DNA from: Sedimentisphaerales bacterium | GTDB taxonomy: Bacteria > Planctomycetota > Phycisphaerae > Sedimentisphaerales > SM23-30 | Direction: 5' to 3' | NCBI GenBank assembly: GCA_016934515.1 | Contig: JAFGSR010000181.1 | Span: 3,554 to 67,553, forward strand | DNA: 64,000 nucleotides | In this document: piece after piece, positions 9,202-26,922 of the stretch | How the letters are laid out: each line of letters opens with the position of its first letter | Position numbering within the stretch: the first letter of the stretch is position 1 | The notes under the pieces: generated by a model | Database searches by the model: none | Seen by the model: the letters and a program-made list of their open reading frames with translations, nothing else | What the model was told of the DNA's origin: nothing | Program-made: the position numbers and the translations under genes

Positions 9202-9419
9202 AATATCCTTTCCTGCCTTAAGTCTATAACAATTATGCAATTAGCTGATTAATCAGTTGCTAATTGCCTAAGGATAACAATTGATTTGCAGGATGATAGC
9301 AGATATTATCCAAGTGGTCAAGGTTGCCGGGCTGGGGGGATTTCCGGTTGGAAAATGTAGAAACTGGGCAAGAGGATGGGACGGACGGAAACAGAAGCTG
9401 CTATGTTGAGGAATTGCAA

Positions 9420-11060
9420 ATGATTATGTATGGAAAAGCAACTGTACCGGCTGAGTTAAGAGTTGGGAGACCGCGGTGGCATTGGATGCTGGCGGGGATG
9501 ATTTTGTTAACTTTGCCGGTGGTTGGTTATGCGAAGATTACCAAAGGGCCGATGCTGTTGCGGGTTTATCAGGATCGTGCAGCGGTTATGTGGGAAACGG
9601 ACGCGGCGGGGTCGGGGAAGGTTTTTTACGGGAAGGTGCCGGAAAAGCAAGGGGCGGGTGAATCTGCGGTGGTACTGGAGAAGCAGGTTGAATCAGATCC
9701 TATCGACATCGATTACAAGTATGAGGAGAAAGATCATCGGGTGTACATTCACAAGGTATGGCTGGAGAATCTCAAATCCGGCGTTGCTTACGAATACGCG
9801 ATTGTAGAGGGGGGATCGGCGGGGACGGGGGCGGGGCGGTATGGTTCGGGTCCTCATCGGTTCCGGACGGTGCCGAAGCATGCAGATGCGGTGCGTTTTG
9901 CGGTTTACGGGGACAGCAGATCTTTTCCCGATCGGCACCGCAAAATTGTGGAACAGATAATGAAGGCGAAGGTGGATTTTGTGGTTAATTCGGGTGATCT
10001 GGTCGGTTCCGGGATGCAATATCAGCAGTGGTCGGATGAGTTTTTTGAGCCGATGCGGGGATTGGCGGAATCGGTGCCGATCTATGCAGCCAAGGGCAAC
10101 CATGATAAAAGTTCGCAGGATTATTTTGAGAAGTTGCTGGTGCCGCCGGGGGAGAAAAATCATTTTGGATTTGAATACGGGCCGGTGAGTTACTGGTGCG
10201 GCGATCAGTATGTGGCGAAACCCGGAGAGTTGTTGGGATTGATGGCGAGATATTTTAAGGGGAAGACGGGGCAGTGGAATTTTGTATCTTTTCACGAGCC
10301 CTGTTTGAATTTTGGAGCGCATGATTCGGCATGGGGTTATCCAAACGCACTACAAAGAATTCTAGAAATGGGAGTGGATTTTCTGGTAGTGGGCCATTCG
10401 CACCTGTATGAACGATTTCGGCCTTTTTGTGGGAAAGATAAAGATGGTTCAGTGAGTTATTTGACGAGTATAACCAGTGGGGGCGGCGGAGCGCCGACGC
10501 ACGGTCCCTATCCGGTAGATTTACATGCTGCGGCCAACGAGGAGTATCATTTTTGTTTATTTGAGATAAAGGGTAACCTGCTAACTATGCAGGAGATAGA
10601 CTTAAACGGAAAAGTAATTGATTCGTTTAAGGTTTCCAAGGTTAAGGGGCGGTTGGATCCGGAATATGTATCGAATGCGGTACCGGTGGAGGAGGCTTTG
10701 CTGGTGCAGAGTTTGCAGCACAAACCGCCGTTAGCGAAACCGGTGGCGGCAAAAGATGAGCCGTTCTGGATTTTTTATGCTATATCGCTGCCTAATGCTA
10801 AAAGCGAGGTGAAGATTGATCTGGAATTGATATTTGATCCGGATAAGTATGAGATAAAGCAACCGAAACAGTCGGTGGTGGTTGGTTTGAATGAAACGGT
10901 TAAGGTTAAGTTTCTGGCAAAGGGCAAGCAGGAAGTGGAGCAAAACTGGTCAAATCCGGGGCCGATTACTCCGGCGATATGGCTGAGCTGTGAATACAAG
11001 TCCGATCAGTGGGAGGGCAGTGTGAAGTTGCCGGTGAAAGGTGAGAGGAAATTTAAATAA
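9420..11060 (+). CDS. Secreted or membrane-anchored metallophosphoesterase, purple-acid-phosphatase-like
   Basis: The ORF track starts at 9324; the ATG at 9420 is more plausible but the start remains uncertain. It has a hydrophobic signal/anchor (WHWMLAGMILLTLPVVGYA). Calcineurin-like motifs are present: FAVYGDSRS, NSGDLVGSG, KGNHD, VSFHEP, VVGHSHLYERF. Confidence 0.8.
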   Translation: MIMYGKATVPAELRVGRPRWHWMLAGMILLTLPVVGYAKITKGPMLLRVYQDRAAVMWETDAAGSGKVFYGKVPEKQGAGESAVVLEKQVESDPIDIDYKYEEKDHRVYIHKVWLENLKSGVAYEYAIVEGGSAGTGAGRYGSGPHRFRTVPKHADAVRFAVYGDSRSFPDRHRKIVEQIMKAKVDFVVNSGDLVGSGMQYQQWSDEFFEPMRGLAESVPIYAAKGNHDKSSQDYFEKLLVPPGEKNHFGFEYGPVSYWCGDQYVAKPGELLGLMARYFKGKTGQWNFVSFHEPCLNFGAHDSAWGYPNALQRILEMGVDFLVVGHSHLYERFRPFCGKDKDGSVSYLTSITSGGGGAPTHGPYPVDLHAAANEEYHFCLFEIKGNLLTMQEIDLNGKVIDSFKVSKVKGRLDPEYVSNAVPVEEALLVQSLQHKPPLAKPVAAKDEPFWIFYAISLPNAKSEVKIDLELIFDPDKYEIKQPKQSVVVGLNETVKVKFLAKGKQEVEQNWSNPGPITPAIWLSCEYKSDQWEGSVKLPVKGERKFK

Positions 11061-11103: not shown

Positions 11104-11808
11104 ATGTTTAAAGCGGTAGTGTTTGATTTTGGCCAGACGCTGGTGGATTCGGCGGACGGATTTCGTCGGGCGGAGAAGGAGGCGCAGGCGAAGATATTTG
11201 GGGATTTGGCGTTTACCGATAAGGACGAGTTTTTGAAGGGGTATCGGCGGATTCGGCGGGAATTTCACGCTCAATCGAAGCTATCGCGGGTGAAGATCTG
11301 GGAGGAAGTGTACTGGTTTTTCTGTCGTCAGGCGGATATGGAAAAGCTGATGCAGTGGGAACAGGAATACTGGCAGAGGGTGAAGGAGCTGACGCGGGTG
11401 TTCGATGAGACCGTGGGGGTGCTGGGTGAATTGCAGAGGCGTTACAAGTTGGCGTTGGTGACGAATACACAGGGGCAAAGAAGCGGGAATGAACACCGAA
11501 TCAGTTTGTATCCGGAGCTGGAGAAGTTTTTTGAGGTGGTGGTAGTGGCGGGTGAAGGTGGGATTCCAGCTAAGCCGAGGATTGAGGCGTTTTCGGTGTG
11601 TCTGGAGCAGTTGAAGGTGTCGGCGGCGGAGGCGGTGTATGTGGGAGATGATTATCGCAACGATGTCGAAGGGGCAACGGCGGCGGGGATGAAGGCGGTG
11701 TGGCTGAAGCATCATTCGGTGGTGCGGAACTGGCCTGACGTAGAGCCGGAGGTGCCGGTGATAAGCAGTTTGGAAGAGTTGCTGGATTTGGAGAAAATTT
11801 TTAGTTAA
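11104..11808 (+). CDS. HAD-IA superfamily hydrolase (haloacid-dehalogenase-like motif I)
   Basis: 234-aa ORF. Motif I is VVFDFGQTLVD, motif II is LALVTNT, and motif IV is YVGDDYRNDVEGATAAGM. Confidence 0.8.
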   Translation: MFKAVVFDFGQTLVDSADGFRRAEKEAQAKIFGDLAFTDKDEFLKGYRRIRREFHAQSKLSRVKIWEEVYWFFCRQADMEKLMQWEQEYWQRVKELTRVFDETVGVLGELQRRYKLALVTNTQGQRSGNEHRISLYPELEKFFEVVVVAGEGGIPAKPRIEAFSVCLEQLKVSAAEAVYVGDDYRNDVEGATAAGMKAVWLKHHSVVRNWPDVEPEVPVISSLEELLDLEKIFS

Positions 11809-11890: not shown

Positions 11891-12048
11891 AAGATGGTTT
11901 TGAAATCCTAAACCCTAAATTCTAAACAAATTCAAAATTCTAGTTCCCTAAAACAGAAAACCGAATGAATGCGGCGGGCAGGGCCCACCCAACGGCGAAA
12001 TGCCGGATGCGCAGGTGAATAACTGCAGTGAAAGATTATGGAGGCTTG

Positions 12049-13530
12049 ATGAGTTCAAAAAAGGTGATGAATTATGTGGGCGGTGAGTGGGTGGAGCCGG
12101 AAAATGGTGGATGGCTGGACGTGGAGAATCCATCGACGGGGGAGGTGATTGGTCAATGTCCGTTATCGACCAGGGCGGCAGTGGACAGTGCGATTGAGGC
12201 GGCGGCGGGGGCTTATCCGGAATGGTCGCGGACGCCGGTGGCGCGTCGGGCGCAGTACATGGCGAAGCTAGCGGAGCTGTTGCGGGAGAATGAGGAGGCG
12301 CTGACCCGGGTAATGACCTTGGAGAACGGTAAGTCTTTGCCAGACGCCCAGGCGGAAGTGAAGCGGGCGTTGGAGAACTGCGAAGTGGCGAGTGGGATGC
12401 CGACGCTGATTCAGGGTGTCAAGGTGATGGGCTGTTCGTTTGGGATCGACGGTGAGGTGCTGCGGCTGCCGGTGGGGGTTTTTGGGATGATAGCACCGTT
12501 TAATTTTCCGGCGATGGTGCCGTTCTGGTTTTTGCCTTATGCGTTGGCGGCGGGCAATGCGATGGTGGTTAAGGCATCGGAGCAGGTGCCGCTGTCGATG
12601 CAGTTTGTGGGTGAGTTGATTGATCAGACGGGATTGCCGGCAGGAGTTTTCAGTTTGATTAACGGGGACCGGACGGCGGCGGAAGCGTTGGTGGCTAATC
12701 CGAATATTAAAGGGATTTCGCTGGTGGGCAACAGCAAGACCTGTCGGGTGGTGGGGCGAAAATGTGCCGAGGGCGGGAAGCGATTTTTGGGGATGGGCAG
12801 CGCGAAGAATCATCTGGTGGTGATGCCGGACGCGAAGGTGGATGAGGTGATTCGTAACATGATAACGTCCTGTTACGGTTGCGCGGGACAGCGGTGCATG
12901 GCATCGTCGGCGATAGTGGCGGTGGGCAGGGAGATGTACGAGAGAATCTGTGAGAAGTTTGTGTCGGCATCGCGGGAAGTGATTGTGGCCAATCCGCTGG
13001 ACGAGGTGGTGGCGGGCGAGGCGATGGTGATGGGGCCGGTGATTTCGGCACGGTCGAAGGAATTTATTCTTAGCATGATTGAAAAGGGATGCGCCGAGGG
13101 AGCGCATTTGGCATTGGACGGGCGGGGTCTGGTGGTGAAAGGGTGTGAGCAGGGTCATTTTGTCGGTCCGACGGTGTTTACGGATGTGAAGCCGGGTATG
13201 GCGGTGCACCGCACGGAGATTTTTGGGCCGGTGGTGGTGATTTTACAGGCGGAGACTCTGGACGAGGCGATTGGGATTATTAACGAGCACGAATACGGCA
13301 ACGGAGCTTCGATTTATACCCAGAACGGTTACTGGGCGCGGAAGTTCAAGCTGGAGACTTTGTGCGGGATGATTGGAGTGAATGTGGGGATTCCGGCGCC
13401 GGTGGCGTATCTGCCGTTTGGGGGGATGAAGGAGTCGCTGTTTGCGGACATTAAGGCTCAGAGCAGGTCGGTGATTGATTTTTATACGGAGAGCAAGGTG
13501 ATTACGGAGAGATATTGGCAGGAACAATAG
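12049..13530 (+). CDS. mmsA: CoA-acylating methylmalonate/malonate-semialdehyde dehydrogenase family
   Basis: The ORF track starts at 12028. The ATG at 12049 has a GGAGG 6 nt upstream (MSSKKVMNYVGGEW...). Family hallmarks are APFNFPAMVPFW and the catalytic-Cys block GCAGQRCMASS. Confidence 0.85.
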   Translation: MSSKKVMNYVGGEWVEPENGGWLDVENPSTGEVIGQCPLSTRAAVDSAIEAAAGAYPEWSRTPVARRAQYMAKLAELLRENEEALTRVMTLENGKSLPDAQAEVKRALENCEVASGMPTLIQGVKVMGCSFGIDGEVLRLPVGVFGMIAPFNFPAMVPFWFLPYALAAGNAMVVKASEQVPLSMQFVGELIDQTGLPAGVFSLINGDRTAAEALVANPNIKGISLVGNSKTCRVVGRKCAEGGKRFLGMGSAKNHLVVMPDAKVDEVIRNMITSCYGCAGQRCMASSAIVAVGREMYERICEKFVSASREVIVANPLDEVVAGEAMVMGPVISARSKEFILSMIEKGCAEGAHLALDGRGLVVKGCEQGHFVGPTVFTDVKPGMAVHRTEIFGPVVVILQAETLDEAIGIINEHEYGNGASIYTQNGYWARKFKLETLCGMIGVNVGIPAPVAYLPFGGMKESLFADIKAQSRSVIDFYTESKVITERYWQEQ

Positions 13531-13731: not shown

Positions 13732-15120
13732 TTAGTCGCGGCCCCATTTTTCGAAATATGAACCGAAAATTTCATCATCGGTGGGAACGTATTCCTCGGT
13801 GGGTACGGAAAGCCAGGTGTAATTGAGGAATTGTTTCCAGTTGATGTTGTCGCTGGTCATGTTACCGGCCCAGGTGCCGCAGCCGAGGGTGTCGGTGAAG
13901 GGCTGGCCGTTGAACCAGCTGCCGCTGTTGGCCATGGCGTGGGGCATGTTGCAGTTGACGCGACCGACGTTGGCTTTGAGGCCCATTTCGAGTTGGCGTT
14001 CGCGGTTGAGGCTGTGTATGGAGGCGGAGTGACCTTCGCCGCTGAACTTTTGCATGAGCTTCATGCGTTCGATCATTTCGCTGAAATCGGTCCATTTCCA
14101 GACGGTCAGGACGGGAGAGATTTTTTCGCCACTGAAGCGGTCTTCGGGACCGGGTTTTTCGCCGATAACCATGAGGAAACGGGTGCCGGCGGGAACGGAG
14201 ATACCGGCGGCGGCGGCGATGACGGGAGCGGGTTTGGCGACGACGTCGCGGTTGAGGGAGTGACCATCGGGCCACATGTAGGTGCGGAGTTTTTCGCGTT
14301 CTTCGGTGGAGCAAAGGTAGCCACCTTCGCCCTTGAAGCACTCGATCATTTCATCGTAAACGCTGGCTTCGATGGCCACGGCATTTTCGGAGGAGCAGGA
14401 AGCGGAGTTGTTGGCGCATTTGGACTTGATGATTTTGGCGGCGGTGGATTTGATATCGACGGTTTCGTCAATGATGGAGATGACGTTACCGGCGCCAACG
14501 GTGTGAGCGGGTTTGCCGGCTTCGTAAACGACTTTGACCAGTGCGGCGCCACCGGTGGCGACGGCGAAATCACAGCCATTCATGAGTTCGCGGGTTTTTT
14601 CCTTACTGGTGTTTTTGATGCACTGGATGAGGTCTTCGGGGGCACCGATTTTTTTGAGTGCGGCGCGGCCGATTTCACAAGTGCGATAGGTGGACTTTTG
14701 GGTGCGGGGGTGAGGAGTTACGATTTGGGCGTTGCGGGTTTTTAGAATGTTGACGCCGAGCGCGCAGACGGTGGATTCCGGATTGGTGCAGGGCACGACG
14801 TTGGCGATGACGCCGATGGGTTTGGCGAATTTGACGATGCCGATTTCGGGAAGCTCTTCGACGATTCCGCAGGTTTTTGCATTACGCATGTCCCAGAGGG
14901 AGCCTTTGGTTTTGGACTGGATTTTACCGACTTTGTCTTCGTAAACGCCGATGCCGGATTCATCGACGGCCAGGCGGGCGAGTTCTTTGGCGGTTGACTC
15001 TTTGGACCACTCGTACCCGACGGCCAGAACCATTTCGTCGACCTTATCCTGAGGCCAATACTCGATAGTTTCGAAAGCCTTGCGGGCCTTTTTGTACATT
15101 TCCTGAATATTATCTTCCAT
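13732..15120 (-). CDS. CoA-acylating aldehyde dehydrogenase (AdhE-N / SucD / SauS-like family)
   Basis: The ORF track starts at 15204. The ATG at 15120 (MEDNIQEMYKKARKAFE...) has a GGAGG about 12 nt upstream. The protein has a VVPCTNPEST block and an active-site Cys context NNSASCSSENAV (compare the F-D-N-G-x-x-C-x-S-E-Q type). It is the last gene of the operon. Confidence 0.8.
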   Translation of the reverse strand: MEDNIQEMYKKARKAFETIEYWPQDKVDEMVLAVGYEWSKESTAKELARLAVDESGIGVYEDKVGKIQSKTKGSLWDMRNAKTCGIVEELPEIGIVKFAKPIGVIANVVPCTNPESTVCALGVNILKTRNAQIVTPHPRTQKSTYRTCEIGRAALKKIGAPEDLIQCIKNTSKEKTRELMNGCDFAVATGGAALVKVVYEAGKPAHTVGAGNVISIIDETVDIKSTAAKIIKSKCANNSASCSSENAVAIEASVYDEMIECFKGEGGYLCSTEEREKLRTYMWPDGHSLNRDVVAKPAPVIAAAAGISVPAGTRFLMVIGEKPGPEDRFSGEKISPVLTVWKWTDFSEMIERMKLMQKFSGEGHSASIHSLNRERQLEMGLKANVGRVNCNMPHAMANSGSWFNGQPFTDTLGCGTWAGNMTSDNINWKQFLNYTWLSVPTEEYVPTDDEIFGSYFEKWGRD

Positions 15121-15273
15121 GTTAGTTTTTACCTCCGTCTGCGGCAGCCGAGCATGCGGCTGTCCTGATTGAAAAAAGATTAAACAATTATTAACATTAA
15201 GCAATTAACCGGGTCAGAACCTGCTGACCATTGTTGTTGGTTAGGGTTTTTGATTAGACCTGAAAGGGCCAGG

Positions 15274-16338
15274 TTAATCAAGTTTTTTCCCAACGCTTTT
15301 AACGCCGGTTTTTTTGCTGGGATCTTCGATCTCTTCATGGATGCGATAGCCGGTGCCGAATATTTTTTGGCGTTCCTGGAAGGCCTGATTCCATTGATCG
15401 GGAGTATGGATCTGAGCGGGCTGGGCGTTTTTATCCCGTTCTTCGAGAGAGGGGACCGGGCGATCATCCGGGCCGTCGTAGATATCTTTGGGAGTCAGGG
15501 CCTGGCCGAGGCGGGTGTAGCCGTTTTCGGCGATATCGCGTTCAACTTCCTCGATGTAATGAGCACCGGCAGCGAAAGAGCGAGTGACAGCGAGGATGGC
15601 CCAGGTGGCTTCGGGCGAGAAGCCGAGGTCCATCATTACCGCCCCGGTAGCGCCGAGCATGTCGATATCGACCGGTTCGGAAGAAGCTTGTTGAGCGGCG
15701 GCGACGACCTCTTTCATGAAAGCGATGTTTTTGCCGGCTACGCCGAGTTTTTCGGCGTGAGCAATCATGCGTTTGGCGGCGGGGTCTTTGAGCATCAGGC
15801 TGGAGACCCCCAGGGACTCATCGTTGAGGTTGTCCTGGACGAGGAGTTTGGCCATTTCGGCGGTGGATTTGCCTTCTTGTTCGGCATGGTTGAGAAATTC
15901 TTCCAAGCGATTACCGAAAGCAGAGTAAGCGCCAAAGGCATGTCCGAAAGCCAGGATGGAAGCCCCGCAGGCCTGGGTAAGGAAGGTTTTGGATTGCGCT
16001 ACCATACGGGACATCAGCACAGGCATGGACAGGCCGTCCTCAAAAGAGAGAATCATTACGTAGTTTAGCATCTGCTCTTCTTCGACGAGCGGAATGCGGG
16101 ACTGGAAATCTACAAAGAGCACATCCGTAATGCCGTAACCTTCTTCCATCAGTTCGGTGGTATCGTAGCCGCGGGCCACGATGCGATGAACATTTTTGTA
16201 TGCTACTTCGGAGACCCACTGGAAAGGAGCCCGTTTGGTATCCAAGGGGACCGTGCCATATTCGCGTTTGCTGTAATCGTAAGGCATCTTGGGACTGTCA
16301 AGATTGCCAATTCCTTTTTTATCTCCTAAATCACCCAT
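15274..16338 (-). CDS. Citrate-synthase / citryl-CoA-lyase-fold protein, paralog B (His motifs degenerate)
   Basis: 354-aa ORF. The N-terminus reads IVARGYDTTELMEEGYGITDVLFVDFQSRIPLVEEEQMLNYVMILSFEDGLS, which is the citrate-synthase-family small-domain pattern. The C-terminus reads PVDIDMLGATGAVMMDLGFSPE...AVTRSFAAGAHYIEE. Its ATG overlaps the upstream gene by 13 nt; an alternative ATG is at 16287. Confidence 0.65.
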   Translation of the reverse strand: MGDLGDKKGIGNLDSPKMPYDYSKREYGTVPLDTKRAPFQWVSEVAYKNVHRIVARGYDTTELMEEGYGITDVLFVDFQSRIPLVEEEQMLNYVMILSFEDGLSMPVLMSRMVAQSKTFLTQACGASILAFGHAFGAYSAFGNRLEEFLNHAEQEGKSTAEMAKLLVQDNLNDESLGVSSLMLKDPAAKRMIAHAEKLGVAGKNIAFMKEVVAAAQQASSEPVDIDMLGATGAVMMDLGFSPEATWAILAVTRSFAAGAHYIEEVERDIAENGYTRLGQALTPKDIYDGPDDRPVPSLEERDKNAQPAQIHTPDQWNQAFQERQKIFGTGYRIHEEIEDPSKKTGVKSVGKKLD

Positions 16339-17222
16339 TGTTTGTACTCTCCTTGTTCTTTCTGGTTTTTGGCATATTCCTGACGTTCACTTTGCTTTGG
16401 AACACGACGGTCTTCGGGTCCGATGTACTTGATCATGCTGAGATCGATCATCTGGACCATGGGCTCGTTGCGGGAGGCGCCCCAGGCGCGGCCGCGTTTC
16501 ATATTGTAGATGGCGTGTGCGGCGCAACTAAACCCACGGCAGACGCTACCGATGCACCAGGCAGCATTGGGTGCGAAACCGATATCGCACAGAGCGGTAT
16601 TTCCGGAACCGACGACGTTGACGCCGACATAGGAACGTCCTTCGGCTTTGCGGCGGGCGTGGAAGTGTTTTTCGACGGCGCGTTGGAATTCGAGGTAAAC
16701 CCCCTGGACGCCGAGTTCTTCCTGTTTAACATGTATGGGTTCGGCACGGGGGTCGCTGTCGATGTGCTGTGGCTGTCCCATTCCCATGACGGGTGTTTTG
16801 TTGTCGAGGTATTCATCGACCAGGATTTTGGCCATTTCGTCGAGAGATTTTCCTTCTTTGTGGGCGCGGTCGAGATATTTGTTGAGCATGTAGCCATGCG
16901 CAGCCCCGGGACCATGTACGCCACCAAAAGTCATGATGGAGGCGGCAATGGCACAAGGCAGATTAGGCCGACCGGTTATAACGCCGATGGCACCAGCAGC
17001 GGAAGGCGACATGGAATGCTCCAGAAAAACGCCCATTTCGTACTTAAGCATTTTTTCTTCGGCGGCGGTGGGGATGCGGTTCTGGAACAACACAAACATA
17101 GCATCGCAGAAAGAATAACCTTTTTCAGCGAGGTCGCTGAGGTTGTACCCGCGCAAGACAGTTTTTTCTTCTGTCTTGTACGAGATCGACGTTTTTCTGC
17201 GAAATAGTGGATCCCTGTTCAT
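16326..17222 (-). CDS. Citrate-synthase / citryl-CoA-lyase-fold protein, paralog A
   Basis: 298-aa ORF. The sequence TSISYKTEEKTVLRGYNLSDLAEKGYSFCDAMFVLFQNRIPTAAEEKMLKYEMGVFLEHSMSPS resembles citryl-CoA lyase and citrate synthase. GGVHGPGAAHG corresponds to GPLHGGANE. VMGMGQPQHIDSDPRA corresponds to GFGHRVYKxxDPRA. Confidence 0.7.
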   Translation of the reverse strand: MNRDPLFRRKTSISYKTEEKTVLRGYNLSDLAEKGYSFCDAMFVLFQNRIPTAAEEKMLKYEMGVFLEHSMSPSAAGAIGVITGRPNLPCAIAASIMTFGGVHGPGAAHGYMLNKYLDRAHKEGKSLDEMAKILVDEYLDNKTPVMGMGQPQHIDSDPRAEPIHVKQEELGVQGVYLEFQRAVEKHFHARRKAEGRSYVGVNVVGSGNTALCDIGFAPNAAWCIGSVCRGFSCAAHAIYNMKRGRAWGASRNEPMVQMIDLSMIKYIGPEDRRVPKQSERQEYAKNQKEQGEYKQWVI

Positions 17223-17264: not shown

Positions 17265-18629
17265 TTAACCCATGGGAATTCCCAGAGTGTTGATTTCTTT
17301 ATTTATTCCTTCGACGAAAGTAACATATTCATCCAGCGGTTTAGCGTTTTCAACATCGAAGCATCGGTCATAAGGTTTTCCGGCGGAAGCGGTTTTGAGG
17401 CCATTTTCATACCTGGTTAATATTGATTTGACGATACCATTGGCCTGGGAGCGGGTCATGCCGGCACAAGCCAAGGCCAAGTGTGTGTTGTTTTTCATTT
17501 CCAGAGGAGTGACGTAATCGGGCAGGGTCGCTTTGGCAGGATGAGGTGTCTGGATAGAAATCCCGGAGGCGATAGAGGCGGCGATAAAAGCAGCACTTTC
17601 ATAGTAGAAGGACTCCGTCCAGGGACCACCGGCAGCATAGGCCAAACCCAGAGTGGGCATGTTGGTGTTGCGGGCGAGGGCCTGGCCGGAGAGAGCCATG
17701 GACCAGATTACGGGGCGGGTAGTAGAACAGCCGTAGTGCATATCCATGGGCAGGGAGAGGTAATAGTTGCACTTGTAAACCAGCATCCCCAAAAAAGCGT
17801 AAGCGGTATTCAAGACGGCGTTAGCTTCGGGACCGCCGCCGTAACCGCCGACCATAGGTGCGGAGGCCAAGACGATATTGGTGCCGGAATTCAGAGAATA
17901 CTCGACTTTTTCCATCATTTCGTTGTTGGTTTTGAACTCGGCAAAAGTGCCCACGATGATAGCGTCGGAAGGAACCAGGGCAACCTTTGCAGCTTCGATG
18001 GTAGCATGGGAACTGCCGGCGGTGGCAATTCCATTGATAATGGCCAATCCATCACGGCCGGCGCGTTTGATGGCGGCACGAGCCACTTCGATAGAACGAA
18101 TGGCCCCTTCGATTTCGCCAGGCTGGCCGGTGATAATGTCCCGGCCGTCAATTTTGTCGAGAGCATTGACACTCATGGAATCGGCTTCGGGAATGGAGGC
18201 ATTACCGAAAACGATCTGGGATTCAATATCCTCTGAAGAAGCCATGATTCCTGAACCGACATGCATCCAGGGACGGGAATCACTGTCAGGTTTTCGGGAG
18301 CGGAAGATGCGAGCTTCTTTGCCTTGGCCAAAATGGCAATCGCCATCGTAATTTGCTATGGCGTCGAGAACTTCATCACGGGTAAAGGTGAACACCGTGT
18401 TGGTATTCTGGAAATAGCAACCGCAATTAACGCAGAAATCGACAGCGGCGGCAAAAACCCGATCGGCCAGGGCATCATCGGAGGGTACCGGATTATCCGG
18501 AGTGTATTGAATGTTATATTTACGGACCAGTTCGGTAAGATTCGTATAGATCCGATCCAGATCGAAAGATTCTACCTGAATTACTAAACCTTGTTTAGCA
18601 CGGTCCAGTATGTTTTGCACATGTGACAT
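17265..18629 (-). CDS. MtmB-family (monomethylamine methyltransferase-like) protein, pyrrolysine-free, paralog 2
   Basis: 454-aa uninterrupted ORF. It appears collinear over its full length with Methanosarcina MtmB (about 458 aa, recalled from memory). Matching blocks are DRAK..G, FTRDEVLDAIAN versus YTEDEIWDAINN, PMVGGYGGGPEANAV versus PIFGGYAGGIEETT, and the C-terminal SAGKPYDRCFDVENAKPLDEYV versus PAGKTFQECYDVKTVTPTEEYM. There is no in-frame TAG. Confidence 0.75.
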   Translation of the reverse strand: MSHVQNILDRAKQGLVIQVESFDLDRIYTNLTELVRKYNIQYTPDNPVPSDDALADRVFAAAVDFCVNCGCYFQNTNTVFTFTRDEVLDAIANYDGDCHFGQGKEARIFRSRKPDSDSRPWMHVGSGIMASSEDIESQIVFGNASIPEADSMSVNALDKIDGRDIITGQPGEIEGAIRSIEVARAAIKRAGRDGLAIINGIATAGSSHATIEAAKVALVPSDAIIVGTFAEFKTNNEMMEKVEYSLNSGTNIVLASAPMVGGYGGGPEANAVLNTAYAFLGMLVYKCNYYLSLPMDMHYGCSTTRPVIWSMALSGQALARNTNMPTLGLAYAAGGPWTESFYYESAAFIAASIASGISIQTPHPAKATLPDYVTPLEMKNNTHLALACAGMTRSQANGIVKSILTRYENGLKTASAGKPYDRCFDVENAKPLDEYVTFVEGINKEINTLGIPMG

Positions 18630-18695
18630 TAGTATATTCCGGTAATCCGTTTATGTTCCGGTAAAAGCAAGCTGAAACTGCCCTGAGGGCAGAAT

Positions 18696-20069
18696 TTACA
18701 GTTTGTAATTGAATCCCATGGTTCGGAGTTCATCTTTGACCTGGCCGTAAAGGTCCACGTATTCCTGGGTGGGTTTGCCGGTGTTGAGGTCGTAAGCTTC
18801 CTGGTATTTTTTGCCGCGGGGAGCGCTGTCGAGAGTGTCGATGTATTTGGGCAGCAGATTTTTGACCATTTCGTTGGCCTGGGCGCGAGTCATGCCGACG
18901 CAGGCTTCGATGAGTTCGACGGAGCCGAGTTTTTCCATCGGGGTGACATAGTCGTTCAATACCGCCCGGGCGGGGTGGCAGGTTTGAGCGCTGACCCCGG
19001 AGGAGATGGCCATGGCGATGTAAGCGGCGGTTTCGTAGAAGAACTGCTTGGTCATGGGCCCGGCAGCCATGTAGCCGAGAGACCAGACGAGTTCTTTGGT
19101 GTTTCGACTGATGGCCTGGTTACTGACGGCGCAACACCAGAGTACTTCAGGCATGGAGCAGCATCCGCGGGTGACGTGAATCGGAAAGGTCAGGTGGCAA
19201 TCGCACTGAAGAACGAGGAGTCCGAGCAGTCGATAAGCGACGTTTAGGACTGCGGTTCCGGCAGGGCCGCCGGCATAGCCACCGACGAGCGGACCTGATT
19301 CGCAGGCTATATTGGCGCCCCAACTGGCCAGGTAAGCGGCTTTGTTGAGGGTGGACATGCCGTATTTGAACTCGGCCAGGGCACCGACCAGCCAAGCGTC
19401 GGAAGGACGCATGCCGGACTGGGGCGTGCTGGCAGCGACCGCGGCGTAAGCGGTACCGGCGGTGGAGATGCAGTTACCGATGGCCAGACCGGGACGACCG
19501 ACATGGCGGGCGGCATCGCGGGCGATGCGCATGGCCCGGATGGCACCGAGGATTTCGGTAGGCTGACCGGACATGATCTTAATACCGTCGATAGAATCCA
19601 GAGCGGGGATACTGATGGAGTTGGCCTGTTTGATGGAGGCGTAACCCTTGACCTGGTTGAAGGCGACCCGTTCGTCAGTGGCGACGATGCCGGTGCCGAC
19701 GTGATACCAGGGCTGGGTGTCGCTGTCGGGTTTCCTCGGGGTCCAGACGTAACGGTCTTTGCCCTGGCCCATGATGCAGCGGCCGGGAGCATTGGCTATG
19801 GCTTCGAGGACTTCATCACGAGTGAACTTAACGATGCTGTTGGTATCGGGAATGAACATGCCGGCTTCAAGGACGAAATCGATGGCAGCCTGGTAAACGC
19901 GGTCAGCCAGAGCGTCGTCGGATGGGACGGGGGTTTTGGGATCAAAAACAATTTTGTATTTTTCGCAAAGTTTCCGGGCCGTCATGTAAACGACATCCAG
20001 ATCGAAGTTTTCTTCGCTCATGGTCGGGCCGGTATTGGCTCTTTTACAAAGTTCAGAAAAACCTATCAT
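18696..20069 (-). CDS. MtmB-family (monomethylamine methyltransferase-like) protein, pyrrolysine-free, paralog 1
   Basis: 457-aa uninterrupted ORF. It shares blocks with 17265..18629: PVPSDDALADRV, FTRDEVLEAIAN, RKPDSD..PW.HVG, GQPTEILGAIR, GRPGLAI, GGYAGGP, DYVTPME and GMTRAQAN. The C-terminal RGKKYQEAYDLNTGKPTQEYV is MtmB-like. Confidence 0.75.
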   Translation of the reverse strand: MIGFSELCKRANTGPTMSEENFDLDVVYMTARKLCEKYKIVFDPKTPVPSDDALADRVYQAAIDFVLEAGMFIPDTNSIVKFTRDEVLEAIANAPGRCIMGQGKDRYVWTPRKPDSDTQPWYHVGTGIVATDERVAFNQVKGYASIKQANSISIPALDSIDGIKIMSGQPTEILGAIRAMRIARDAARHVGRPGLAIGNCISTAGTAYAAVAASTPQSGMRPSDAWLVGALAEFKYGMSTLNKAAYLASWGANIACESGPLVGGYAGGPAGTAVLNVAYRLLGLLVLQCDCHLTFPIHVTRGCCSMPEVLWCCAVSNQAISRNTKELVWSLGYMAAGPMTKQFFYETAAYIAMAISSGVSAQTCHPARAVLNDYVTPMEKLGSVELIEACVGMTRAQANEMVKNLLPKYIDTLDSAPRGKKYQEAYDLNTGKPTQEYVDLYGQVKDELRTMGFNYKL

Positions 20070-20204: not shown

Positions 20205-21605
20205 TTAGCGCATTTTGTCAGGGGCTCTTATTATAATTCTTTTCAGGCACTGTTCGATAATGTTCAGGGCCTGGTCCATCTGTTCGACGGTAATAGTCAA
20301 CGCCGGGGTCAAGGTCAGGATATTTGACATGGTAACTTTAAAGCTGAGGCCTTTGCCAAGAGCGGCATACATCATTTTGTCAGCCAGGTCAGGTGCCGGT
20401 TGGTTTGAAACCTGATCGTGGACAATTTCCAATCCCAGCAGCAGTCCGATGCCGCGGACGGGACCGACATGAGAGTGATTTTTTTGCATTTGGCGCAGAC
20501 GGTCGAGAGCGTGGCTGCCGATTTTAGCGGCGTTTTCACAAAGGTGCTTTTCTTCGACGAATTCGATGGCAGCCAGTGCGGCGGCACAGGCAACGGGATT
20601 TTTTTCGTGGGTGTAGTGGCCCAGAGCCCGATCGCCGGCGACAGCCAGGTGTTCGCGGGCGAGAACGGCGGCATGAGGGAAGATACCGCCACCGAGGCCT
20701 TTGCCAATGACGAGGATGTCCGGGACGATGTCAAAGTGTTGGCAGGTGAACATTTTGCCGGTGCGGCCGAGGCAGTGAGGGATTTCGTCGAGAATGAGCA
20801 AGGCGTCGTGCTTGTCGCAAATCTGTCGGATTTTTTTCCAATATTTCTGTGAGGGAACCGATGAGGTGCTGCGGACGGTTTCGGCGATAAAGGCGGCGAC
20901 ATCGCCTTCCTTTTCCATGATGTAATCGACGTAATCGGCACACTTGAGGTTGCAGTTATCCCGGCAGTCCCAGAAGCAGCGTGGGCAATCGGGCGGCGGA
21001 ACGTGTTCGGTGCCGGGCAGGAGTGGTCCGACATCTTTGCGGAAGATGGTTTCACCGCCAACGCTGATCGCATCGAGCGAAGCACCATGGAAGGAATCCC
21101 AAGTGGAAATGGTTTTAAACCGGCCGGTGGCATAGCGGGCGAGTTTCAGAGCGATACCCATGGCGGAGGTGCCACCGGGAGCGAACAATACTTTGTTGAG
21201 ATCGCCGGGTGCCAAAGCGGTGAGCTTTTCGGCAAGCTTGATGGCGGGGATGTTGGTGTAACGTCGTGTGCAAAAGGGTAGCTCGTCGAGTTGGTCTTTG
21301 ATGGCCTGGATAACGCGCTGATTGCCAAAGCCAACCTGATGGACATTGTTGCCGTGGAAATCCATGTAGCGTCGTCCCTGAAGGTCCTGGAGATAAATAC
21401 CATCGCAGCGTTCCAGCACGTTCAGGCAGGGTGTGGAGAGTGACTGATGGAGGAAGAATTTTGCGTCGGCTTCGAGCCATTTTCGGGTTTGGGCATCGAT
21501 GTTGTTGCGGGACCAATCCGCACGGCGTGGGGAAATGTTCAAGTCGCCTTCTGATTGTAGCGTGATAAGCTGGTCATTTTTTTTCGGCACCAAAGGCATG
21601 ATCAA
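20205..21605 (-). CDS. Class-III (omega) aminotransferase-fold PLP enzyme
   Basis: 466-aa ORF with blocks FAPGGTSAMGIALKLAR, LILDEIPHCLGRTGKMF and the PLP-Lys context VIGKGLGGGIFP. It lies only 24 nt downstream of the PhnX-like gene. Confidence 0.85.
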   Translation of the reverse strand: MIMPLVPKKNDQLITLQSEGDLNISPRRADWSRNNIDAQTRKWLEADAKFFLHQSLSTPCLNVLERCDGIYLQDLQGRRYMDFHGNNVHQVGFGNQRVIQAIKDQLDELPFCTRRYTNIPAIKLAEKLTALAPGDLNKVLFAPGGTSAMGIALKLARYATGRFKTISTWDSFHGASLDAISVGGETIFRKDVGPLLPGTEHVPPPDCPRCFWDCRDNCNLKCADYVDYIMEKEGDVAAFIAETVRSTSSVPSQKYWKKIRQICDKHDALLILDEIPHCLGRTGKMFTCQHFDIVPDILVIGKGLGGGIFPHAAVLAREHLAVAGDRALGHYTHEKNPVACAAALAAIEFVEEKHLCENAAKIGSHALDRLRQMQKNHSHVGPVRGIGLLLGLEIVHDQVSNQPAPDLADKMMYAALGKGLSFKVTMSNILTLTPALTITVEQMDQALNIIEQCLKRIIIRAPDKMR

Positions 21606-21629: not shown

Positions 21630-22358
21630 TCAGGAAAATTCACTTTCGATCAGCGCCGGCAGCTCTCTGACGCTGGGGATGACATGGGTGTGATAATATT
21701 TTCCCCAAGCTTCGACCGGTCGGGGTCCGCTGAGCACCCCGACGATGCCGCGGCAGCCGGCGTTACGACCTTCCAGCATATCCGCCGGGGTGTCGCCGAT
21801 CTTGATTACTTCGTGTACGCTCTGGATACCCAACTGGGCCATGGCGTAAAAGATCATGAAGGGTGCGGGCCGGCCCATTTCGCCGACGACGTGTTCGACA
21901 TCCACGGAGAGATCGACCAGACCGTCGCGAACCCAACCCAGGCCGTCCATGATGGCTTCGGTTATGTCGCGATGGAAACCGGTGTCGGTTGCTACCTTAA
22001 TGCCGTTATCGTGGCACCAACGGAAGCAGTCGGCGGCACCGGGTACCTCTTTGACTTCTTTACGGTAGTGGTTGATCATGATTTCTGAGTAGCGGTTAAA
22101 CACCTTTACCGCTTCTTCATGGGTGTCGGGATCCTTGACTTTTTCAAAATCTTCGATCGCGATTTTCTTACCTTTTGATCGGGCGATAAGAAACTGATAA
22201 AGGTGTATTTTGTTCGTGCCCATGTGCAACAGAATTTCTTCCGGGGTGGTATTGAGATTGTGTTCCTGGGCCGCTTTATAAAGGCAGTCTCTCACCCCCG
22301 TGTCATCATAAACAGTGGTTCCGGAAAGATCAAACATCACCATGCTAATCTTGCTCAT
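21630..22358 (-). CDS. phnX: Phosphonoacetaldehyde-hydrolase-like HAD enzyme (PhnX-like)
   Basis: The ORF track starts at a TTG at 22379. The ATG at 22358 has a GGAG 6 nt upstream (MSKISMVMFDLSGTTVYD). Motif I is D-L-S-G-T, with a small residue at D+2 as in the PhnX motif D-W-A-G-T. HMGTNKIH aligns with the PhnX Schiff-base-Lys segment PMGLLKIDH. GRPAPFM and KIGDTPADMLEGRNAG align with the PhnX segments GRPYPWM and KVGDTVSDMKEGRNAG (Bacillus PhnX recalled from memory). Confidence 0.75.
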   Translation of the reverse strand: MSKISMVMFDLSGTTVYDDTGVRDCLYKAAQEHNLNTTPEEILLHMGTNKIHLYQFLIARSKGKKIAIEDFEKVKDPDTHEEAVKVFNRYSEIMINHYRKEVKEVPGAADCFRWCHDNGIKVATDTGFHRDITEAIMDGLGWVRDGLVDLSVDVEHVVGEMGRPAPFMIFYAMAQLGIQSVHEVIKIGDTPADMLEGRNAGCRGIVGVLSGPRPVEAWGKYYHTHVIPSVRELPALIESEFS

Positions 22359-22474
22359 TTTTTTCTCCAGGTTCTCCAATCAGGTTTTTACCACTTATTC
22401 AGATTCAAATTCTTTTGACCCATTAGTGCCTAAGCTAAAGTGTTTTTGACAATTTTTTGGTCGTTGCCGGAGAA

Positions 22475-23578
22475 TTACGGCACGACAATAGGTCTTATCG
22501 ATTCGCGTTTCTCCAAGGACTCCAGCGCCGCGGTTACTCCCGCCGCAGTCAAGGGAAATTCAGGACCGGTCAGCTTCCGGTAGGGATACCTCTGTCGGCT
22601 GCGATGCACCAGGTCCAGCGCCAGCCCCAAATAGCGGGAATCGTAGTTGTGCAGGCCCATGATAGTCAGACACTTAATAATCACGTCATGCGAGGCCAGG
22701 GTAAAAAGGTCGTCGGGATACACGCTGCCCTGTAGTAGATAGCGACCACCGATACGCAGCATCTTAACTCCCACAGGAATCACCTGGGCGAATCCCGCCA
22801 CTTCCACCACCAGGTCAGCTCCCCAGCCGTCGGTCAGGTCTTTAACCTGGCTGACCACTTCTTCGTCACCCAAGCCCTGGACGTTAAGGCAGTGATCGGC
22901 GCCAAATTCCCGGCCCACCTCCAACCGTTTGTCTAGGATATCGACCATGATTACCTGCTTGGCCCCCTGCTCTTTAGCCAGGGCCGCAGCGTACAAGCCC
23001 AACATCCCCGCCCCCTGGATTACCACGTTTTCCCCGGGCTGCAAGCCGATCCGAGCCAGCCCCGCCGTCACCGTGGCCGCGGCACACATGAGCGGTGAGA
23101 CCTCCTCATCAGCCATATCATCCGGCACTTTGAATACACTCGTGCCGGGCTTGACATACACATACTCGCCAAACGTGCCCATGAAATAGGGCGGCACATC
23201 GCTTTTGACATGGCCGTACTTAAATAGATTAAGGCACTTCTGCGGTAGCGAGTGAATCCGGCAAAAGCAGCAGTAACCGCAATTGGCCATGATTGCCCAG
23301 GTGATACGGTCACCCACTGCCAGGGATTTGCCCGTCGTGTCCTTTTCCACGCCGGAGCCCATCTGGGCGATGGTTCCCAGCCCTTCATGGCCCAGTATCG
23401 AAGGAGTAGGAAAGGGTCGGCGCCCCCGCCAACTGTGCATATCCGAGCCGCATACCGTAGCCATGGTGGTCTTCACCAGGATTGCCCCCGGCTCCAACTC
23501 TTCCGGAAGAGGAAAGCTATGCTCTTCCAGAGGTTTTCCTACCCCCATAAACATAACTACCTTGCCTGTCTTACCCAT
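22475..23578 (-). CDS. Zinc-dependent medium-chain alcohol dehydrogenase (phosphonate-catabolism-associated type)
   Basis: 367-aa ORF with zinc ligand blocks CGSDMH and GHEGLG, structural-zinc cysteines CGYCCFC, and the Rossmann motif VVIQGAGMLGLYAA. It sits between phnW and the PhnX-like gene, an arrangement recognised for this ADH clade (TIGRFAMs description, from memory). Confidence 0.85.
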   Translation of the reverse strand: MGKTGKVVMFMGVGKPLEEHSFPLPEELEPGAILVKTTMATVCGSDMHSWRGRRPFPTPSILGHEGLGTIAQMGSGVEKDTTGKSLAVGDRITWAIMANCGYCCFCRIHSLPQKCLNLFKYGHVKSDVPPYFMGTFGEYVYVKPGTSVFKVPDDMADEEVSPLMCAAATVTAGLARIGLQPGENVVIQGAGMLGLYAAALAKEQGAKQVIMVDILDKRLEVGREFGADHCLNVQGLGDEEVVSQVKDLTDGWGADLVVEVAGFAQVIPVGVKMLRIGGRYLLQGSVYPDDLFTLASHDVIIKCLTIMGLHNYDSRYLGLALDLVHRSRQRYPYRKLTGPEFPLTAAGVTAALESLEKRESIRPIVVP

Positions 23579-23683: not shown

Positions 23684-24817
23684 TTATAGGAGTTTAAGGC
23701 CCATTTCTTTGATTACATCGCGGATAGCGCCGAGGAGGTCCCTGACGTCAGAAGCAGAAATTCGGCCGATATTTCCGATTCGGAAGCAGTCGGCGTTGCT
23801 TACTTTTCCGGGATAAATCACGTAGTCTCTTTCATTAAGGGCTTCATAGAATTTTTCAAAGCTGAAGTTTGGATCTTTCGGATACCGGAAAGAAGTAATG
23901 ATGTAGCCCTGGACTTTTTGGTCGAGATATTCTTCGAAGCCCATTTTGCGCATGCCTTTGACGAGGGTTTCGTAATTGTTGCGATAGCGGGCAGCGCGAG
24001 CTTCGACGCCGCCTTCGGCATCAAGCTCCAGCAGGGCCTGGTAAAAAGCCAGCATCGCGTGGGTTGGTGGGGTAAAGCGGAACTGTCCGTTGGCTTCGAG
24101 GCCCTTGTACTGGGCACAAAGATCGAAAGAGAGGCTGCGAGCGTTGCCTTCGGTTTCGAGCAAGGAGCTGATCTTGGCAATGACGAAGGAAAAGCCGGGC
24201 ACGCCTTCGATGCATTTGTTGGCCGAGGATACCAGGTAATCGATGTTGCACTCGGCGAGGTTGGTAGGAACCGCACCAAAGCAGCTCATGGCATCGACGA
24301 AGAACTTTGCCCCGGCGGCTTTGACGATGGCGCCAACTTCCTTGATGGGATTCATGATACCGGTGGTGGTTTCACAATGGGTAATGGCGACATTGGTGAT
24401 GTTGGGGTCGGATTTGAGTTTGGCCTGGATCTGGGCCGGGTCGGGAGTCTGGTCTTCGGGGAATTCCATGGTTTCGAAATCGATCTTGAGTACTGATGCG
24501 ATTTTGGCGATACGGTGGCCGTAAGCACCGTTGATGACAACCAGGAGTTTGCCGTCCTGAGGAACATAGCAGCCGATGACCGCTTCGAGAGCGTAAGTGC
24601 CGCAACCCTGGAGGGGGACGGTAGTGTATTCGTCAGAGGTTGCCTGTCCGGCCTTGAGCAGCAGTTCACGGATGCCCTTGATGACACCGATGAATTCAAA
24701 ATCTCTGGAACCCAGGTCGCGAAGCATAGCTTGTTTGACCTTTGGGCTGGTGGTGAGAGGTCCGGGTGTGAAGAGGATTTTATCTTTCCAGCCGGGAATT
24801 TTCGTATTGGTTTTCAT
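23684..24817 (-). CDS. phnW: 2-aminoethylphosphonate:pyruvate aminotransferase
   Basis: 377-aa ORF. The N-terminus ILFTPGPLTTSPKVKQAMLRDLGSRDFEF and the PLP-Lys block YLVSSANKCIEGVPG are typical of PhnW. An AAAGGAG RBS lies upstream of the ATG at 24817. Confidence 0.9.
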   Translation of the reverse strand: MKTNTKIPGWKDKILFTPGPLTTSPKVKQAMLRDLGSRDFEFIGVIKGIRELLLKAGQATSDEYTTVPLQGCGTYALEAVIGCYVPQDGKLLVVINGAYGHRIAKIASVLKIDFETMEFPEDQTPDPAQIQAKLKSDPNITNVAITHCETTTGIMNPIKEVGAIVKAAGAKFFVDAMSCFGAVPTNLAECNIDYLVSSANKCIEGVPGFSFVIAKISSLLETEGNARSLSFDLCAQYKGLEANGQFRFTPPTHAMLAFYQALLELDAEGGVEARAARYRNNYETLVKGMRKMGFEEYLDQKVQGYIITSFRYPKDPNFSFEKFYEALNERDYVIYPGKVSNADCFRIGNIGRISASDVRDLLGAIRDVIKEMGLKLL

Positions 24818-26599: not shown

Positions 26600-26922
26600 G
26601 AATAATCATCCAACTAGTGAAAAAATATTTCCGTCAAGTAAAATCCGCCGAACCAAACCTGCTAAAAAAGGTGCCAAACAGTACAATTCCACTTTTTCGG
26701 GCATGAACAACTGCATTTTGGGCAATTATATCAGGGTCATAGTAATTATCAAGGCAGGAAACAACCTATCAAAGTGAATTTTATCGGTCGTGGCGAATTG
26801 ACTATATGGTTTTAAGAATGAAATAAGGGGCAAGTCAGGAAATTGATACATTAGAGCGGTTTTCCTGCCGAATTTGATTACAGACAAATACGTTCTGATT
26901 TGTGGAAACCAGAAGGAAATTT

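Follow-up and report, generated by a model that had tools for sequence, protein, structure and literature searches.

Pyrrolysine-free MtmB homologs in a planctomycete phosphonate operon: candidate corrinoid-dependent demethylases of N-methylated aminophosphonates

The canonical monomethylamine methyltransferase MtmB (EC 2.1.1.248), known from Methanosarcina, carries a UAG-encoded pyrrolysine (Pyl) at residue 202 and is encoded beside an MtmC-type corrinoid protein (domains B12-binding_2 and B12-binding). Here we describe two tandem genes of the same family, MtmB-1 and MtmB-2, in a 64,000-nucleotide stretch of DNA (hereafter the window) from a Sedimentisphaerales bacterium of the Planctomycetota (GenBank assembly GCA_016934515.1, contig JAFGSR010000181.1, positions 3,554 to 67,553). 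MtmB-1 is like the Methanosarcina enzyme (1L2Q, 1NTH) in Pfam family and fold, is 27% identical to it and collinear with it over the full length, and shares with it the GRPG motif before the catalytic loop and many conserved acidic residues. Unlike the Methanosarcina enzyme, the window pair is bacterial, has neither UAG nor Pyl, adjoins no MtmC, and is set among phosphonate genes and not in methanogenesis.

Within the family, MtqB of Methanococcoides methylutens Q3c is a tetramethylammonium/choline:corrinoid methyltransferase that has no Pyl (Kashyap et al. 2026, PMC13044021), and the same paper, published in March 2026, calls the function of the other non-Pyl MtmBs unknown; the remark in an earlier note on this DNA, made from its letters alone, that a functional story for non-Pyl MtmB relatives is missing is therefore outdated. 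MtqB shows that such proteins can be active as the first methyltransferase (MT1) together with a cognate corrinoid protein, and its substrate choline is a close structural (hydroxyl) analogue of trimethyl-2-aminoethylphosphonate (trimethyl-AEP). By its published description, on which our comparison is based, MtqB adjoins MtqC, serves methanogenesis and branches near the Pyl-containing MtmBs (PMC13044021), whereas the window pair falls in separate planctomycete clades, lies among phosphonate genes and has no adjacent corrinoid protein. The non-Pyl members of the MttB superfamily (MtgB, MtcB, MtpB and MtyB) follow the same logic, in that loss of Pyl goes with larger, charged N-methyl substrates, and they work in three-component systems of MT1, corrinoid protein and second methyltransferase (MT2) that feed tetrahydrofolate in anaerobic bacteria, as we propose here; they differ from the window pair in belonging to another superfamily (PF06253) and in that all their known substrates are quaternary amines.

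On the phosphonate side, N-methyl-AEP is a frequent natural product that is not a substrate of the AEP transaminase PhnW, and AEP clusters recruit accessory enzymes for it (PMC10590968). PbfB, PbfC and PbfD (Zangelmi et al. 2023, PMC10590968) have the role that we propose for the window pair, i.e., making N-methyl-AEP usable in phnWX-type clusters, but they are of unrelated fold and carry out an FAD-dependent oxidative demethylation or deamination that leads directly to phosphonoacetaldehyde, for which some of them need O2; the window pair would instead remove the methyl group non-oxidatively and leave AEP to PhnW. We searched the literature for MtmB in combination with phosphonate or aminoethylphosphonate and met no paper that draws the connection; the enzyme family is already known, and its link with phosphonate catabolism appears to be unreported.

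The MtmB pair and its operon

The two genes at the center of this analysis, and the two neighbors that best define their setting, are as follows.

18696-20069, minus strand: MtmB-1, 457 residues, non-Pyl MtmB homolog of clade B1 (clades are defined below)
17265-18629, minus strand: MtmB-2, 454 residues, non-Pyl MtmB homolog of clade B2
23684-24817, minus strand: PhnW, 2-aminoethylphosphonate:pyruvate transaminase, first gene of the operon
20205-21605, minus strand: PbfA

As the earlier note had claimed, the pair are adjacent, full-length members of the MtmB family. Both matched Pfam PF05369 (MtmB; cut-off 25 bits) practically end to end, MtmB-1 with an E-value of 1.2e-86 (292 bits, positions 5-449 of the 450-position profile) and MtmB-2 with 6.5e-76 (256 bits, positions 3-450), and no NCBIfam model claimed either protein. 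By phmmer against the PDB, MtmB-1 matched M. barkeri MtmB (1L2Q, E-value 2e-50, residues 8-453). We also built an AlphaFold2 model of MtmB-1 alone, with 18 homologs, which had a mean local confidence (pLDDT) of 89.7 and a predicted template-modeling score of 0.91; in Foldseek comparisons it superposed on 1L2Q, 1NTH and 1TV2 with a template-modeling (TM) score of 0.93 and a root-mean-square deviation of 2.0 Å over 456 columns, and on MttB-family structures with a TM score of about 0.5. The two proteins are clearly diverged paralogs (47% identity over 453 residues; intergenic gap 66 bp), and every block that had been quoted as common to them was found: PVPSDDALADRV, FTRDEVL.AIAN, RKPDSD, GGY.GGP, DYVTP.E and GMTR.QAN.

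Neither ORF has an in-frame stop of any kind, and there is no tRNA gene in the window. The motif given in the earlier note for Methanosarcina, AGRPGMGV-Pyl-GPE, is present in the 1L2Q crystal sequence as AGRPGMGV-X-GPE, X202 being the Pyl position. Its equivalents in the pair are HVGRPGLAIGNCISTAG and RAGRDGLAIINGIATAG (the Pyl loop reading GRPGLAIGNCISTAG in MtmB-1 and GRDGLAIINGIATAG in MtmB-2), and X202 aligns with Gly198 of MtmB-1 (HMMER and a first MAFFT alignment) or with Asn199 (a second MAFFT alignment), an equivalence uncertain by one residue, and with Ile or Asn in MtmB-2; ordinary residues thus occupy the position, as had been supposed. Membership in the MtmB family, the absence of Pyl and the divergence of the paralogs are confirmed by the profile matches, the alignment with 1L2Q, the 47% identity and the superposition of the model.

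The pair sits in a run of nine minus-strand genes separated by -13 to 135 bp, in the order PhnW, a zinc-dependent alcohol dehydrogenase (Zn-ADH), a PhnX-like hydrolase of the haloacid dehalogenase (HAD) type, PbfA, MtmB-1, MtmB-2, two citryl-CoA-lyase-like proteins (CCLa and CCLb) and a SauS-like dehydrogenase. That this is a phosphonate operon, as the earlier note had it, is borne out by PhnW, which scored above the cut-offs of two NCBIfam models (NF010006, 495 bits against 296; TIGR02326, 486 bits against 401), and by PbfA of the AEP cluster (NF049939, 700 bits against a cut-off of 525). No MtmC-type protein adjoins the pair: a hidden Markov model (HMM) of the corrinoid protein, run against all six frames of the window at E-values up to 10, had no match, and no B12-binding domain occurred among the 25 Pfam families listed, out of 57 matched, for the other ORFs of the window.

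Clades B1 and B2 and the corrinoid partner in relatives

We compared the pair with 77 MtmB loci from GTDB species genomes, 78 from metagenomes and 12 obtained by exact-protein look-ups, with flanks of up to 10 kb on each side. ORFs in these loci were crude stop-to-stop segments labeled by BLAST, trees were by neighbor-joining only and rooted on 1L2Q, a neighbor was counted when it lay within 5 kb of an MtmB gene, and corrinoid proteins were checked in Pfam for B12-binding_2 plus B12-binding and for the DxHxxG motif. Associations between modules were counted over 36 deduplicated loci, and all locus statistics concern loci that are phylogenetically non-independent.

An internal UAG was absent from all 212 distinct MtmB homologs of full length in the fetched loci. 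Three matches that stopped near residue 200-214 had been candidates for Pyl-containing relatives; those of L075 and L079 broke off at assembly gaps (runs of N) and that of L080 at the end of its contig. Over 166 fetched loci, MtmB-1 falls in a clade, B1, with the loop RPGLAIGNCISTA, and MtmB-2 in a clade, B2, with the loop RPGLPIINGIATA; each had a bootstrap of 100/100, and B1 plus B2 were monophyletic at 93/100, making them sister clades. Taxon labels, where present, were Planctomycetota in every case. An earlier tree had placed a clade of L020, L023 and L025 as sister to B1 plus B2, and this was dropped at a bootstrap of 0/100. The neighbors of the clades were distributed as follows.

Clade B1, 44 genes: corrinoid protein 1, PhnW 28, PbfA 14, PhnX 10
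Clade B2, 25 genes: corrinoid protein 0, PhnW 16, PbfA 3, PhnX 7
All other non-Pyl MtmB clades, 140 genes: corrinoid protein 118 (84%), PhnW 7, PbfA 5, PhnX 5

In the 63 loci of B1/B2 type the MtmB genes lie between or adjoin PhnW, PbfA and genuine PhnX, the last of which scored 329-340 bits (cut-off 220) and shared an operon with B1/B2 in 13 loci. Gene orders include PhnW-B1-B2-PhnX followed by an aldehyde dehydrogenase (ALDH) in L008 and L166, and PhnW-B1-PhnX in L098; the PhnW orthologs of L026 (546 bits) and L166 exceeded the cut-offs. Across many lineages and in varied orders, MtmB genes have been inserted between phnW and phnX or pbfA in single operons, and the transporters of these clusters are of the organophosphate:phosphate antiporter type or carry an AEP substrate-binding protein (SBP). 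Since genuine PhnX shares an operon with B1/B2, we rejected the idea, prompted by L001, L002 and L004, in which PhnX is missing, that the MtmB pair replaces PhnX in C-P cleavage. B2 and PbfA are negatively associated: of the 14 loci with PbfA only 3 had B2, versus 18 of the 22 without PbfA (p = 5e-4). The window belongs to these three loci that combine the two, out of 36.

Corrinoid proteins do occur with B1 and B2 in some relatives. In L096, one co-directional cluster reads B2, PhnX, B1, PhnW, an MttB homolog, a major facilitator superfamily (MFS) transporter of the organophosphate-antiporter type, an activation-like ORF (223 residues, related to the MetH activation domain, 1J6R, E-value 3e-5), a corrinoid protein (278 bits to the HMM, with DxHxxG), a third MtmB that we call MtmB3 (clade B3, 43% identical to MtmB-1) and a pterin-binding MT2. 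L086 starts inside MtmB3 and continues with MT2, PhnW, B1, B2 and PhnX, so that a corrinoid protein presumably precedes it. In L164 a B2-type gene lies 7 kb from a module of activation protein, corrinoid protein, MtmB3 and MT2; on the 247-kb contig that holds L162 and L166 the corrinoid module is 12 kb from PhnW-B1-B2-PhnX-ALDH, and L167 repeats this synteny up to the end of the fetched stretch. Homologs of the L096 corrinoid protein at 69-78% identity number more than 100; those with names are Planctomycetota, in which close homologs (70-78%) are common. One of them lies at 4.92 Mb in the complete Phycisphaerales chromosome CP070747.1, about 3 Mb from a PhnW-PbfA-B1-CCLa cluster (at 1.90 Mb). 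The missing partner is thus a local feature and not an absence from the system: the earlier note was right that the window pair has no corrinoid partner beside it, as do 68 of the 69 related genes within 5 kb, and wrong if this is meant of the system, and a module of this kind in relatives comes close to what that note had named as refuting its claim, a cognate corrinoid system encoded elsewhere.

The pattern extends beyond the Planctomycetota, there with the corrinoid protein adjacent. L119 and L126 have PhnW-PhnX-MtmB-MtmB-corrinoid protein, L023 has a PhnW fragment, MtmB, a corrinoid protein and MtrH, and L021 combines a LysR regulator, two PbfA (722 and 652 bits, above the cut-off), an SBP that matched no NCBIfam models except those for AEP-binding proteins, three MtmB, a corrinoid protein, a Pterin_bind protein and DUF1638. 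MttB homologs share clusters with B1/B2 in L026, L096 and L105, which would agree with the use of a trimethylammonium form as well. Divergent from the corrinoid protein-MtmB3-MT2 genes of L162 (1014-8281, minus strand) are two MttB homologs, an MFS transporter, a class II aldolase, a HisC-like aminotransferase and a beta-phosphoglucomutase-type HAD, which suggests that the same planctomycete corrinoid system handles another methylated substrate as well, one that is not a phosphonate. In CP070747.1 a DDE transposase lies 5 kb downstream of the corrinoid module. Taken with the clade-specific linkage above, these loci indicate that one branch of the non-Pyl MtmBs is devoted to the catabolism of aminophosphonates and, where its genes are clustered, is part of a full system of MT1, corrinoid protein and MT2.

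At the level of residues, B1 keeps essentially everything that is conserved across the corrinoid-linked MtmB clades, and it has the same residue at many positions as MtmB3, which always adjoins a corrinoid protein. MtmB-2 departs from the residues common to B1 and B3 at E257A, Y143N, H292Y, W226I and W250S, and the position aligned to MtmB Glu259 is among those that are common to B1, B3 and MtmB and replaced in B2. Leu stands at the positions that align with Glu229 and Gln333 of MtmB, and positions specific to B1/B2 are D25, C98, S116 and F343; Glu229, Glu259 and Gln333 are reportedly of significance in MtmB (Hao et al. 2002).

Proposed demethylation and its alternatives

With moderate confidence, we think that MtmB-1 and MtmB-2 are corrinoid-dependent MT1 methyltransferases that demethylate N-methylated AEP or 1-hydroxy-AEP (HAEP) in AEP catabolism; the substrate, the direction of the reaction, the dependence on a corrinoid and the roles of the two paralogs are what we infer from the comparisons above. 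Each protein would bind an N-methylated aminophosphonate (N-methyl-AEP, a di- or trimethyl form, or N-methyl-1-hydroxy-AEP), and the methyl group would be taken up by Co(I) in a small corrinoid protein, from which a pterin-binding MT2 would carry it to tetrahydrofolate. PhnW or PbfA would then turn the demethylated product, AEP or (R)-HAEP, into phosphonoacetaldehyde, from which the products of downstream genes would yield phosphate and a two-carbon unit. For this genome we expect the genes of the corrinoid protein, MT2 and activation protein to lie beyond the window. PhnW cannot use N-methyl-AEP, for which aerobic AEP clusters recruit the FAD-dependent PbfB/C/D, and the simplest reading is that B1 and B2 are oxygen-independent demethylases and the counterpart of those enzymes. 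The comparative evidence favors N-methyl-AEP, which the earlier note had put forward among possible substrates.

Several observations weigh against this proposal. The window holds no corrinoid protein, MT2 or activation gene, and a corrinoid protein was found within 5 kb of only 1 of 69 B1/B2 genes versus 118 of 140 others (Fisher p ~3e-34, for non-independent loci). The comparison of residues in B1/B2 brought up no clade-specific Arg or Lys able to bind a phosphonate. In CP070747.1 the corrinoid module is damaged, with MtmB3 cut to its first 35 residues and no adjacent MT2 (L161, 9273-10770), so that it looks like a partly decayed methyltransferase module and may be read either way, the activation-like ORF, the corrinoid protein and the B1 cluster being intact. 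To our knowledge, moreover, all characterized non-Pyl MT1 enzymes use quaternary amines, and demethylation of a secondary amine without Pyl would have no precedent.

Some of the same observations would be expected if the planctomycete B1 and B2 had lost their dependence on a corrinoid and used the TIM-barrel funnel of MtmB for some other cofactor-independent reaction on an AEP-related compound, e.g., freeing or altering an AEP conjugate, or handing a methyl group to a different acceptor. Besides the scarcity of adjoining corrinoid proteins, a first scan of 338 kb of planctomycete loci with the corrinoid-protein HMM had no match, CP070747.1 retains its B1 cluster without an intact MtmB3 and MT2 beside the corrinoid protein, and B2 has replaced residues common to B1, B3 and MtmB, including the position aligned to Glu259. 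We nevertheless consider such a loss unlikely, as L096 and L086 have B1 and B2 in one operon with corrinoid protein, MT2 and an activation-like protein, L164, L162/L166 and L167 have the corrinoid module in the same island, the corrinoid protein is intact in the complete genome CP070747.1, B1 retains the residues conserved throughout the family, and no residue pattern points to an alternative chemistry. Less probable still is that the pair are corrinoid-dependent methyltransferases for a non-phosphonate amine (choline, tetramethylammonium, methylamine or a methylated ethanolamine), like MtqB, and lie with AEP genes only since both take part in degrading the head groups of lipids or glycans. 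Such a role would agree with the substrates of the sole characterized non-Pyl MtmB (choline and tetramethylammonium, PMC13044021), with the phosphoesterases that adjoin several clusters and with the MttB homologs, generic aminotransferases or AOR that accompany relatives. It sits poorly with the repeated insertion of the genes between phnW and phnX or pbfA, with the restriction of the AEP linkage to particular MtmB clades and with transporters of the organophosphate:phosphate antiporter or AEP-SBP type.

The earlier note had also taken the divergence of the paralogs to suggest a hetero-oligomer. If this were obligate, one subunit would be catalytic and the other structural or regulatory, and the tandem genes with their 66-bp gap, the origin of the sister clades from one duplication (B1 plus B2, 93/100) and the loss in B2 of residues conserved in B1, B3 and MtmB are all compatible with it; M. 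barkeri MtmB is a homo-hexamer, and mixed assemblies are therefore conceivable. B1 occurs without B2, however, in L001, L002, L085, L094, L098 and L099 (with flanks of 5-10 kb), B2 occurs without B1 in L164 and L024, and the negative association of B2 with PbfA looks like that of alternative accessory functions, all of which makes an obligate complex improbable. The B2 changes (E257A, Y143N, H292Y, W226I and W250S) suggest that B2 has a substrate of its own and is no mere structural subunit. Within the demethylation that we favor, the paralogs most likely differ in substrate, whether in methylation state or in AEP versus HAEP, and form no obligate heteromer.

The downstream module and the rest of the window

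The remaining genes of the cluster, and three plus-strand genes that are convergent with it, are as follows.

22475-23578, minus strand: Zn-ADH, zinc-dependent alcohol dehydrogenase (Pfam ADH_N plus ADH_zinc_N)
21630-22379, minus strand: PhnX-like HAD hydrolase
16326-17222, minus strand: CCLa, citryl-CoA-lyase-like protein a
15274-16338, minus strand: CCLb, citryl-CoA-lyase-like protein b, more degenerate than CCLa
13732-15204, minus strand: CoA-acylating aldehyde dehydrogenase, SauS-like, last gene of the operon
12028-13530, plus strand: CoA-acylating aldehyde dehydrogenase of the methylmalonate-semialdehyde dehydrogenase (MMSDH) type
11104-11808, plus strand: HAD hydrolase of 234 residues, motif I DFGQT, no second Asp (Asp+2)
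9324-11060, plus strand: metallophosphoesterase with a purple-acid-phosphatase N-domain (Pfam Metallophos plus Pur_ac_phosph_N)

Inserted between phnW and pbfA are the PhnX-like HAD and Zn-ADH genes (21630-23578, minus strand). The best family of Zn-ADH was the 'phosphonate-catabolism-associated ADH' TIGR03366, at 302 bits just under the cut-off of 328, and the PhnX-like HAD likewise scored below cut-off to TIGR03351 (170 bits, cut-off 219) and to the phosphonatase model TIGR01422 (115 bits, cut-off 220). Its motif I is FDLSGT, without the second Asp, and it has a segment HMGTNKIH that we take to be like the cap segment of PhnX with the Schiff-base Lys. No orthologs of this HAD/ADH pair were found in the 62 other B1/B2 loci, L016 having only an ADH at 29% identity, and the window operon is for this reason a mosaic; the extra branch is possibly specific for hydroxy-phosphonoacetaldehyde.

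CCLa and CCLb lack most residues aligned to the catalytic positions of the citryl-CoA lyase 6HXP. CCLa scored at most 114 bits to NCBIfam citryl-CoA lyase subfamilies, all under their cut-offs (6HXP E-value 7.5e-18), and retains the histidine of HG(G)A, the GH and D positions aligning to Q and V; CCLb scored at most 102 bits, also under cut-offs (6HXP E-value 2e-8), and has none of the catalytic residues aligned. We had regarded the CCL-like proteins as possible analogues of the SauCD sulfoacetate-CoA ligase, which proved to be of a different family (PF00549). The last gene of the operon scored higher to SauS (NF047625, 479 bits, cut-off 600) than to AdhE (382 bits) or the EutE type (301 bits). 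On the convergent strand, the MMSDH-type dehydrogenase exceeded its cut-off (TIGR01722, 472 bits against 448.5), and orthologs of it at ~70% identity come after PhnX in the related clusters L007, L008, L010, L024, L085, L098 and L103. The 234-residue HAD, whose best PDB matches are the HDHD4/NANP phosphatases, has orthologs directly 3' of the SauS-like dehydrogenase in related loci; its family was seen in 12 loci, always with the CCL and acylating dehydrogenase module where flanks were available.

CCLa, CCLb, the SauS-like dehydrogenase and a HAD with motif I of the form DxGxT or DxCxT (no Asp+2) make up a conserved four-gene module, found at the following places.

Window, 11104-11808, plus strand, and 13732-17222, minus strand
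L012, 9436-13609
L099, 6114-10287
L105, 12800-16890
L088, 12801-16901

This module and the combination of PhnX with the MMSDH-type dehydrogenase are alternatives downstream of the MtmB genes: they were never found in one locus, each occurring alone in 13 of the 36 deduplicated loci (p = 7e-4). In the window the four-gene module occurs together with the PhnX-like HAD and the Zn-ADH. The module may deal with phosphonoacetaldehyde independently of PhnX. A more far-reaching idea, which we regard as doubtful, is that the operon encodes two unreported anaerobic phosphonate steps, demethylation of N-methyl-aminophosphonates without Pyl and C-P cleavage without PhnX. The first step might extend to secondary, tertiary and quaternary substrates and do without a dedicated adjacent corrinoid protein. 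That the SauS-like enzyme forms phosphonoacetyl-CoA, which CCLa/CCLb and the HAD convert to acetyl-CoA and phosphate, is attractive as chemistry and pure speculation; we found no literature support for such a route, and met phosphonoacetyl-CoA in the searchable literature only as a biosynthetic compound.

As to the other flanking genes, the metallophosphoesterase of the window could possibly release a phosphonate head group, and it is uncertain whether it is part of the system. Directly 5' of phnW in L166 (6180-8765) and L167 (19610-20660) is a PF04185 phosphoesterase with a beta-propeller (860 residues), and phosphoesterases that flank the clusters could act on phosphonolipids or glycans to free their AEP or N-methyl-AEP head groups. 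At the edges of B1/B2 clusters in seven loci (L007, L010, L012, L085, L093, L099 and L105; e.g., L012 13684-15339 and L099 10362-12008) a HAD of ~256 residues is followed by a class-I glutamine-amidotransferase/Peptidase_C26-like protein of ~293 residues, for which it is conceivable that it is a gamma-glutamyl-amine hydrolase acting, e.g., on a gamma-glutamyl-AEP conjugate. An Fe-dependent alcohol dehydrogenase occurs in seven largely overlapping loci, L098 taking the place of L093. Just upstream of the cluster are two rubrerythrin-family genes (8080-8526, plus strand; 8713-9240, minus strand), which fits an oxygen-sensitive lifestyle, and downstream is a 420-residue protein with a PilZ domain and a weak receiver-domain match (26902-28164, plus strand). 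An IS200-like transposase domain (Y1_Tnp) occurs among the remaining ORFs of the window, which is otherwise housekeeping, and a scan for promoters and terminators gave nothing decisive on the boundaries of the operon.

Non-Pyl MtmB homologs are numerous and, save for MtqB, had no assigned role; for one whole clade there is now a concrete substrate prediction that can be put to the test, and the group that characterized PbfB/C/D has already synthesized the candidates M1AEP, M2AEP and M3AEP with their hydroxy forms. A module of SauS-like, CCL-like and HAD proteins that may substitute for PhnX could lead to a further route of C-P cleavage. If a secondary amine is the substrate of the MtmB pair, Pyl would not be required for the demethylation of non-quaternary amines, and the finding points to strict anaerobes of sediments that would use N-methylated aminophosphonates without oxygen-dependent or flavin oxidases.

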